A stretch of DNA of 64,000 nt, taken from a virus. The stretch is taken from positions 239,971 to 303,970 of the IMG/VR virus record IMGVR_UViG_3300045996_002337; one strand, 5' to 3'. The position numbers were made by a program, and so were the translations under genes. Under the pieces are notes generated by a model. The model saw only the letters and a program-made list of their open reading frames with translations. It was not told the origin of the DNA and ran no database searches. Below, piece after piece: positions 6,662 to 6,779 of the stretch; the first letter of the stretch is position 1; each line of letters opens with the position of its first letter.

Positions 6662-6779
6662 TGGTGGGGACTCGTGGGCTCGAACCACGGACCTACTAGA
6701 TGTCTACTTTCTGCATGGACAATGGGCGCCGTTCCATGCAGTTTCGCTCTAATCGCTCTACCAACTGAGCTAAGTCCCC
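6662..6779 (-). tRNA. tRNA-like gene (118 nt) with about 42-nt insertion in the anticodon loop (intron-like)
   Basis: Acceptor ggggact/agtcccc, D-arm tagctcagttggtagagc, anticodon stem attag/ctagt, variable aggtc, T-arm ccgtggTTCGAGCccacgg, encoded CCA. Inserted 49 nt include a 9-bp hairpin ctgcatgga...tccatgcag. Confidence 0.5.

Follow-up and report, generated by a model that had tools for sequence, protein, structure and literature searches.

A tRNA-shaped gene with a structured 42-nt excess in its anticodon region, from the tRNA array of a jumbo phage

Archaeal and eukaryal tRNA introns are short, lie in the anticodon loop and are often paired with the anticodon; they are recognized at a bulge-helix-bulge (BHB) motif, cut by EndA/Sen and joined by RtcB or Trl1, and their ligation uses healing enzymes related to phage RNA-repair proteins. 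To our knowledge, protein-based tRNA splicing is not known in bacteria, and the only tRNA introns that we know to be established in bacteria and phages are self-splicing group I introns. Here we analyze a gene at 6662-6779 on the minus strand (118 nt) of a 64,000-nt stretch of viral DNA, called the window, whose coordinates are used throughout and which is part of a ~350-kb jumbo-phage contig. The gene is real and intact, derives from a tRNA and has a structured excess of 42 nt. It is one case of something that has been little described so far, namely short, structured inserts within the tRNA genes of phages. 'Enigmatic' tRNA introns have been described in Lak megaphages (Devoto et al. 2019, PMC6784885), and our literature searches returned no other report of introns in phage tRNAs.

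Anatomy of the 6662-6779 gene

Read 5' to 3' on the minus strand, from 6779 to 6662, the gene runs GGGGACU UA GCUC AGUUGGUA GAGC G AUUAG (49 nt) CUAGU AGGUC CGUGG UUCGAGC CCACG AGUCCCC A CCA. Its parts are given below; comparisons with other phages draw on a survey of NADAR-anchored phage loci and IMG/VR pattern scans, in which L-numbers denote loci or contigs.

6662-6779, minus strand: tRNA-shaped gene with a 49-nt anticodon-loop region, 118 nt (RF00005 48.5 bits; ARAGORN intron mode; fold z=-3.7)
6773-6779, minus strand: 5' strand of the acceptor stem, GGGGACU, pairing 7/7 with AGUCCCC at 6666-6672
6755-6770, minus strand: D-arm, GCUC AGUUGGUA GAGC, the same as the D-arm of 2255-2362 (Rfam alignment)
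6743-6760, minus strand: tandem 9-nt direct repeat UAGAGCGAU/UAGAGCGAA across the 3' strand of the D-stem and the 5' strand of the anticodon stem (read from the sequence)
6749-6753, minus strand: 5' strand of the anticodon stem, AUUAG, with 5/5 pairs to CUAGU at 6695-6699
6700-6748, minus strand: 49 nt replacing the 7-nt loop, AGCGAAA CUGCAUGGA ACGGCGCCCAUUG UCCAUGCAG AAAGUAGACAU, with no second copy in the window or in 2.3 Mb of phage DNA
6733-6741, minus strand: 5' arm of the hairpin, CUGCAUGGA, perfect 9-bp stem (p=0.0008 by shuffling)
6711-6719, minus strand: 3' arm of the hairpin, UCCAUGCAG (shuffle test; minimum free energy (MFE) structures)
6695-6699, minus strand: 3' strand of the anticodon stem, CUAGU (Rfam alignment, pairing)
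6673-6694, minus strand: variable loop AGGUC and T-arm CGUGG UUCGAGC CCACG, of which 20 nt are 95% identical to 2268-2287
6662-6672, minus strand: 3' strand of the acceptor stem AGUCCCC, discriminator A and encoded CCA (pairing scan)

In a sensitive Rfam search, the whole tRNA model RF00005 (positions 1-71) matches 6665-6779 on the minus strand with 48.5 bits (E=1e-9; gathering score 29 bits), and the alignment places 49 nt as an insertion between the two halves of the anticodon stem, where a decoding tRNA usually has a 7-nt anticodon loop. The acceptor stem pairs at 7/7 positions, the T stem at 5/5 and the anticodon stem at 5/5 (one G.U), and the CCA end is encoded. The gene is missed by default ARAGORN and by Rfam with default filters. 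ARAGORN with introns allowed does call it, but the call requires a shifted stem and C37 and yields Ser(AGA).

Within the 49 nt, CUGCAUGGA and UCCAUGCAG form a perfect 9-bp Watson-Crick stem, a length equaled in 16 of 20,000 dinucleotide shuffles of the same 49 nt (0.08%). The predicted fold of the complete gene has -44.6 kcal/mol (z=-3.7), a stability that none of 200 shuffles attains, and a constrained cloverleaf with an extended arm reaches -42.4 kcal/mol, within 2.2 kcal/mol of the MFE. Outward from the body, the arm consists of a 6-bp stem, a 6x10-nt internal loop, a 9-bp hairpin (12 bp with three more pairs) and a 6-nt apical loop. Owing to the UAGAGCGAU/UAGAGCGAA repeat, the D-arm can also pair in another way, and in the unconstrained MFE structure it does so.

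The Rfam alignment and the shuffle test thus bear out the original prediction of 42 extra nucleotides with a 9-bp hairpin inside the anticodon loop, and the proposed anticodon stem attag/ctagt around 49 nt has all 5 of its 5 pairs. The gene had also been said to share its D-arm and variable loop with the gene at 2255-2362; the D-arm (GCUCAGUUGGUAGAGC) and the variable loop (AGGUC) are indeed identical, as is the T-loop, and the T stems are one pair apart.

In the internal loop of the arm, GAA stands opposite AGUA, flanked by a C-G pair, and a loop-E/sarcin-ricin-like motif was considered there as an idea, as was an H-type pseudoknot between UGUC and GACA. An inverted repeat (6778-6797/6856-6875) joins the CCA end of a tRNA-Gly to the first bases of the gene. 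Together with two others (8129-8150/8212-8233 and 10198-10227/10295-10324), it belongs to a set of long inverted repeats, 20-30 nt and 77-90% complementary, that bracket or abut tRNA genes and may be processing hairpins.

Excision products and the sibling tRNA-Asn gene

We scanned exhaustively for deletions of 15-64 nt, lying anywhere from the D-arm to the T-arm, that would give a 5-bp stem and a 7-nt loop with U33 and R37 (one stem mismatch, a variable loop of 3-6 nt and 0-2 connector nt being allowed). No single deletion in 6662-6779 produces such a canonical anticodon arm. As a positive comparison, the identical scan recovers the loop CUGUUAA for the Asn gene at 2255-2362, and the window's standard tRNAs have U33 in 28/28 cases and R37 in 27/28. 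The best product from 6662-6779 encloses AG/GACAU or UAGACAU between AUUAG and CUAGU, a Val(GAC)-like loop that lacks U33. The 3' flank GACAU and A73 would fit a Val(GAC) loop such as that of E. coli tRNA-Val. Similarity of the body gives mixed isotypes (Ala, Gly, Asp, Val and Lys) and is uninformative on identity. Ala is excluded by the G3-C70 pair of the acceptor, as tRNAs with the same 5' 25-mer carry the Ala-type G3.U70. A two-intron scheme leaving UU+GACAU and cleavage by RNase III, RNase E or an anticodon nuclease were also considered as ideas.

The sibling Asn gene is informative in this respect.

2255-2362, minus strand: tRNA-Asn(GUU) with a 32-nt insert after U33/G34, at ~2298-2329 (Rfam 55 bits; ARAGORN intron mode; deletion scan; L260 orthologue)

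Removal of the 32 nt restores the loop CUGUUAA in a gene that has U1-A72, G73 and an anticodon stem resembling that of proteobacterial tRNA-Asn. In a second phage, the contig L260 has a tRNA-Asn that is interrupted at the same position, 33/34 or 34/35, with identical flanks (CUGACA and UAGUUAA). This gene was found with the pattern GGACTGACA..TAGTTAATCC and is the only true Asn orthologue among its matches, the other six lying in loci without an ARAGORN tRNA gene and apparently being due to chance. In both phages the insert opens with GAC, which is paired to the anticodon GUU, giving a 4-bp helix of U33 and the first 3 insert nt with the anticodon and A37, and a 3x2 internal loop is kept. All 8 pairs of the hairpin are also kept despite the change in sequence, through 3 double and 2 single compensatory changes, a covariation that is the signature of a selected RNA structure. 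The gene is the only Asn tRNA in the window array, and likewise a single Asn gene is seen in the L260 array. Because the hairpin covaries and the gene is the only one for Asn in either array, the insert is probably removed from the RNA in the manner of an intron.

Both window inserts, that of the Asn gene and that of 6662-6779, end in UA directly before G34. This is the sole feature that they share, and we rejected the Asn-type class for 6662-6779, from which the 4-bp anticodon-insert helix is absent. Because the syntenic tRNA-Asn of L015 has, at position 28/29, an insert of another type, a Y RNA-like helix, and the tRNA-Asn of L003 has an extra arm in the variable region instead, inserts are judged to come and go within this phage clade.

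Mimics and insert-bearing tRNA genes in the array and in other phages

The tRNA array at 1.2-10.4 kb holds 26 standard tRNA genes with considerable redundancy (three Tyr, three Ala, two Thr and two Pro genes), and it contains other tRNA-like units.

5341-5462, minus strand: third tRNA-shaped unit, CCA-ended, without a recognizable anticodon loop (acceptor/T-arm scan; constrained fold)
5477-5593, minus strand: YrlA-like RNA, a permuted tRNA mimic (RF02553 39.1 bits, E=2.8e-7, against a gathering score of 69)
8705-8813, minus strand: second YrlA-like RNA, paralogue of 5477-5593 (weak RF02553 match, 21 bits against a cut-off of 69)

The unit at 5341-5462 had been described as built in the same way as 6662-6779. 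This holds for the body, which has a 7-bp acceptor (three G.U), U73, a T-arm, a D-arm and CCA. It does not hold for the rest, since the unit is undetected by ARAGORN and by Rfam, and a 13-bp hairpin with a GCAA tetraloop at its tip forms the anticodon arm, with a long variable hairpin after it. The two YrlA-like RNAs have common ends, UUAGCAACCG..GAUGA..UUAUC and CGUUAUCGC..UUUGUUGCU.

The survey revealed many CCA-ended tRNA genes with inserts of 18-70 nt, forming at least three groups, and several insert-bearing tRNA genes are present in the related phages L001, L015, L016 and L017.

L015 7301-7427, 7437-7565 and 2634-2775; L016 1161-1297; L017 1685-1808; L088 13040-13175: genes with Y RNA-like inserts
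L177 (three tandem genes), L208, L212, L188, L207, L158, L116, L173 and L107: genes with CAGCAA inserts
L150, L184, L193, L201, L206, L213, L111, L175, L152, L168 and L015 1410-1510: genes with the two-helix insert

Inserts of the first group are Y RNA-like helices (ACCG..RAUGRUUAUC), unpermuted counterparts of the window's two YrlA-like RNAs, and occupy CCA-ended tRNA genes of L015, L016, L017 and L088 in the form ..ACCG-N5-7-RAUGRUUAU/CC... In the L015 tRNA-Asn, where the helix lies between 28 and 29, its removal leaves a perfect arm, CCCCA-CUGUUAA-UGGGG. The second group has an insert of ~41 nt, a variable hairpin followed by an invariant CAGCAA, without an Rfam match. Its excision (insertion at 28/29 or 31-33) leaves a perfect tRNA in several cases (Ile, Pro, Asp and Thr), and removal of CAGCAA inserts leaves perfect tRNAs in L177, L193, L194 and L212; an ungapped alignment of the inserts gives no consensus structure, their hairpins differing in length. 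In the third group, YUCAUGG-GAAGG-RCC-AAAUGCC with two covarying helices, P1 and P2 (alignment A1; model R1, from 10 members), takes the place of the anticodon loop in tRNA-like genes that end in CCA, and no canonical anticodon can be restored from them. Genes of tRNA shape with a CCA end, from which no anticodon loop can be recovered, occur at L015 2634, L016 1161, L088 13040, L107, L112, L150, L184 and L201.

Two further kinds of insert-bearing gene were noted. L113 (342 kb) and L148 (246 kb) have an identical tRNA-Thr(CGU) with a 42-nt insert and a 9-bp hairpin after U33, which has the same size and architecture as the insert of 6662-6779 and an unrelated sequence. A tRNA-Val at L041 15-104 carries an 18-nt perfect hairpin (GCUAGGC-UUCG-GCCUAGC) at 33/34, and the flank GUG pairs with the anticodon CAC. 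The earlier argument that anticodon-region inserts are not random decay is upheld by the recurrence of the Asn insert in L260 with its covarying hairpin and by the insert genes of related phages.

We compared 6662-6779 with these groups. It was rejected as a member of the third, as the covariance model R1, run with filters off over window positions 1-21000, gives no match at 6662-6779 at E<=10. It was rejected as a carrier of a YrlA module, with no RF02553 match at E<=10, and a scan for the Ro-binding helix motif (ACCG..RAUGRUUAUC / ..CGUUAUCG) is positive at 8705-8813 and negative at 6662-6779. As regards the second group, it has CAGAAA inside a hairpin arm, as opposed to the invariant CAGCAA 2-5 nt after the hairpin. 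A loop motif, GAACGGCG, is common to 6662-6779 and the members L107, L208 and L177, and an alignment of its insert with that of L107 has p=0.03; the two are weak hints of a link to the CAGCAA inserts.

The L,D-transpeptidase of the phage (4349-5296) shows 100% identity to a protein on one 349,660-bp JGI metagenome contig, the next relatives being at 55-59%, and no close relative of the window was found in IMG/VR. The distant relatives L001, L015 and L016 have several open reading frames (ORFs) in common with it and also possess tRNA arrays. Minus-strand genes match phage families (RNA ligase, DNA ligase, NAMPT, a PurZ-like enzyme, HNH and metallophosphoesterase), and a bacterial host is indicated by the transfer-messenger RNA (tmRNA), OmpA and L,D-transpeptidase genes.

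Several side observations concern the array and its surroundings. T-arm units (GGUUCGAnnCC) occur on the minus strand at 7594-7668, 8487-8576, ~9366, ~9605 and ~10236, some with 7-bp acceptor-like stems, none with CCA and none called as a tRNA. A tRNA-Met-like gene with the loop CUCAUAA (6216-6284, minus strand) reaches 29.4 bits in Rfam and has no ARAGORN call. Two tandem CUA-anticodon tRNAs of the amber-suppressor type (ARAGORN 'Pyl'; 18641-18716 and 18723-18799, minus strand) adjoin a permuted two-piece tmRNA (19306-19749, minus strand; tag ANEANYRMAA), and in some genes of the phage UAG may be a sense codon. A NADAR-domain gene (1789-2241) lies inside the array. The window also encodes NAD salvage enzymes, NAMPT and NMNAT-Nudix, and a PurZ-like adenylosuccinate synthetase (phrog_1211) that hints at 2-aminoadenine DNA; these three genes lie at 21163-22563, 22649-23911 and 26589-27698.

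Readings of the gene and comparison with known systems

Our tentative first choice, held at somewhat less than even confidence, is that 6662-6779 is a functional non-decoding tRNA mimic that keeps its arm. The observations at its base are the anatomy of the gene, the significance of the hairpin, the lack of any excision that restores the loop, and the other mimics nearby and in related phages; the array already holds non-decoding mimics, namely the two YrlA-like RNAs and the CCA-ended unit at 5341-5462. As precedents for RNAs of this shape, with no known role, in the tRNA clusters of phages we take rnaC and rnaD of phage T4, and YrlA. Beyond these, we infer expression, end processing, retention of the insert and a binding partner. 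The RNA would be made as part of the array transcript, and its intact acceptor stem, its D and T arms and its encoded CCA would let it be trimmed like its neighbors. It would not be spliced into an ordinary decoder, its decoding end having been replaced by a rigid structured arm. The anticodon end would thus be unable to read a codon, analogous to the YrlA-like RNAs of the same array, and the tRNA body would be presented to tRNA-binding proteins such as processing and repair enzymes or host anticodon nucleases.

Several results weigh against a mimic. The sibling Asn gene of the same phage is very probably spliced, as its insert and that of L260 suggest, and the 3' edge of the 6662-6779 insert (..UA/GACAU-stem) resembles the Asn junction (..UA/GUUAA-stem), which hints at a shared processing signal. 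The insert is also without the YrlA Ro-binding motif, and Pfam finds no Ro/TROVE protein, and likewise no splicing endonuclease (EndA/Sen) or RtcB, among the 50 ORFs scanned (64 kb of ~350 kb). Finally, no orthologue of 6662-6779 was found in the searched collections. A megablast against INPHARED gave neither an orthologue nor a close relative of the window, and IMG/VR searched with exon patterns and a gap gave no orthologue. The 5' 25-mer matches only tRNA-Ala genes with G3.U70 in IMG/VR, the 3' exon pattern and the flank pattern have 0 matches each in JGI metagenomes (a collection without the source contig), and a D-arm and anticodon-stem pattern has one match in GTDB genomes, which is irrelevant.

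Alternatively, the gene could be an intron-bearing tRNA, in which a protein endonuclease of phage or host cuts out 42 nt and the halves are ligated to a Val(GAC)-like product with the loop AGGACAU or UAGACAU, lacking U33. We regard this as possible, if doubtful. Precedent within the array comes from tRNA-Asn, whose 32-nt insert leaves CUGUUAA upon exact removal and is kept in L260 with identical flanks, the 3x2 internal loop and a covarying 8-bp hairpin; the UA directly before G34 ends both window inserts, and perfect tRNAs remain once the CAGCAA-containing inserts of L177, L193, L194 and L212 are taken out. Lak megaphages are reported to have tRNA introns whose mechanism is unknown (PMC6784885). 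On the other side, no excision of 6662-6779 restores the U33 that is present in 28/28 normal tRNAs of the window, the 4-bp anticodon-insert helix of both Asn genes is missing, and similarity of the body identifies no isotype. A BHB intron was rejected, as enumeration of strict motifs (two 3-nt bulges with a 4-bp helix between them and flanking helices, compatible with the cloverleaf) gives 0 matches in 6662-6779 by a script that finds its positive control; one relaxed match has 2- and 4-nt bulges and uses UGUC/GACA.

The enzymes of the phage bear on the same question.

38776-40137, minus strand: Rnl5-family RNA ligase, candidate sealing enzyme (Pfam PF21189+PF09414; PDB 5cot NgrRnl, E=1e-64)
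41660-42475, minus strand: metallophosphoesterase, possible RNA end-healing enzyme (Pfam PF00149, phrog_1649)
47171-48193, minus strand: RlaP-family nucleotidyltransferase, RNA-repair associated (Pfam PF10127, E=2e-6)

Pfam and phrog matches confirm that an RNA ligase, an HNH nuclease and a phosphoesterase are encoded as first noted, the HNH gene lying near the other two, and ligase, metallophosphoesterase, HNH and RlaP together are a typical jumbo-phage RNA-repair set (PMC7824862). In L107, a distance of 0.7 kb separates an Rnl5 homologue from a tRNA-like gene with an insert. This phage's possession of a ligase, a phosphoesterase and RlaP speaks for splicing; the kind of ligase and its place speak against it. 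It is Rnl5, not an Rnl1-type anticodon-loop ligase, and lies 32 kb from 6662-6779 (the RNA-repair genes as a whole are 32-41 kb away). Enzymes of the Rnl5 (NgrRnl) type seal 3'-OH/5'-PO4 nicks in duplexes, and their physiological role is unknown (PMC7261155, PMC5397189, PMC4408790). The scanned ORFs include no tRNA splicing endonuclease. The proposal of a protein-dependent splicing or repair pathway is supported in part, by the structured inserts and the presence of the enzymes; for 6662-6779 itself the missing U33-restoring cut, the missing BHB motif and the distant Rnl5 ligase weigh against it.

A broader and rather unlikely conjecture is that jumbo phages carry an uncharacterized class of ~30-45-nt hairpin tRNA introns, neither group I nor BHB, which an anticodon-nuclease-like enzyme cuts at or beside the wobble position and phage RNA repair seals. 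If true, this would be protein-dependent tRNA splicing in bacterial cells, possibly keeping phage tRNAs inert or nuclease-resistant until needed, and 6662-6779 would belong to the class, its mature loop being atypical.

The gene might also be a young pseudogene, which we consider distinctly unlikely: after duplication of a tRNA gene, one copy would have lost its function through the recent insertion of a hairpin-forming sequence and would not yet have decayed. The array is redundant (three Tyr, three Ala, two Thr and two Pro genes), such that loss of a copy would cost nothing; no canonical anticodon is recoverable, no orthologue shows conservation, and the 9-nt tandem duplication at 6743-6760 beside the insert suggests local sequence instability. 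Yet all body stems are perfectly paired, the 9-bp hairpin is perfect and has 3 further pairs, and the cloverleaf with its extended arm is within 2.2 kcal/mol of the MFE. Moreover, similar structured inserts are found repeatedly, and conserved, among related genes and phages.

It is very improbable that the insert is a small RNA that cleaves or splices itself, whether as a member of a known ribozyme class or as a degenerate group I intron. The insert is structured and group I introns are known in bacterial and phage tRNA genes (PMC3984707, PMC13011429), but 42 nt is far under group I size, and in a sensitive search with all 4227 Rfam families over 6600-6850 the tRNA model alone matches at E<=10. 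Both a group I intron and the known self-cleaving ribozymes (hammerhead, twister, pistol, hatchet, hepatitis delta virus-like and hairpin) were rejected, there being no match to any such model at that threshold. Least credible of all is a small mobile palindromic repeat, of the miniature inverted-repeat transposable element (MITE) or repetitive extragenic palindromic (REP) kind, that landed in tRNA genes: hairpin-forming inserts do occupy several tRNA genes of one array, and the original prediction had named copies of such a repeat as the alternative to excision, but the three window inserts (2255-2362, 5341-5462 and 6662-6779) have no common sequence and give only self-hits by blastn-short against the window and 2.3 Mb of phage loci, a repeat search within the window finds no copy of the 6662-6779 insert, and the Asn insert of L260 has another stem sequence at an unchanged position between unchanged flanks.

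The short structured inserts in anticodon arms, the conserved and covarying Asn insert and the recurrent families across IMG/VR contigs do not fit a picture of group I introns only. They point either to an unrecognized RNA-processing route or to a large unannotated phage repertoire of tRNA mimics. If the inserts are retained, the RNAs are candidate decoys against tRNA-cleaving defense systems, or cofactors of phage RNA repair. Default tRNA finders miss such genes, so phage tRNA complements are under-called; the window's only Asn tRNA is among those missed.

Compared with archaeal and eukaryal introns, the setting here is a bacterial host, with no cloverleaf-compatible BHB in 6662-6779 and no EndA-like gene among the scanned ORFs, and the Asn insert of the window lies at 33/34 or 34/35 and not at 37/38. 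Group I introns likewise interrupt the anticodon loop of bacterial-type tRNA genes; they differ in having ~200 nt or more with a conserved catalytic core, as against a 42-nt insert. The Lak megaphages are similar in that very large phages have tRNA genes interrupted in the anticodon region, missed by bacterial tRNA finders and without a known splicing mechanism. They are of another phage lineage and host, one Lak intron is reported as a possible tRNA gene (PMC6784885), and Lak genes can be assigned to a tRNA type and anticodon, whereas 6662-6779 has no restorable canonical loop.

YrlA (Chen et al. 2014, PMC4201824; RF02553) is also a phage-encoded, tRNA-shaped noncoding RNA with T and D arms and a long helix replacing the anticodon end. 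It is circularly permuted, with a closed acceptor and its ends in the long stem, and has a Ro-binding helix, whereas 6662-6779 has an open acceptor stem with CCA and no Ro-binding motif. Finally, species 1 and 2 of phage T4 (rnaC and rnaD) are stable RNAs of unknown function within a phage tRNA cluster, rnaC with a T-arm and an acceptor-like stem and rnaD with a CCA end. They have no sequence similarity to 6662-6779 and no full tRNA score, whereas 6662-6779 matches the whole tRNA model.

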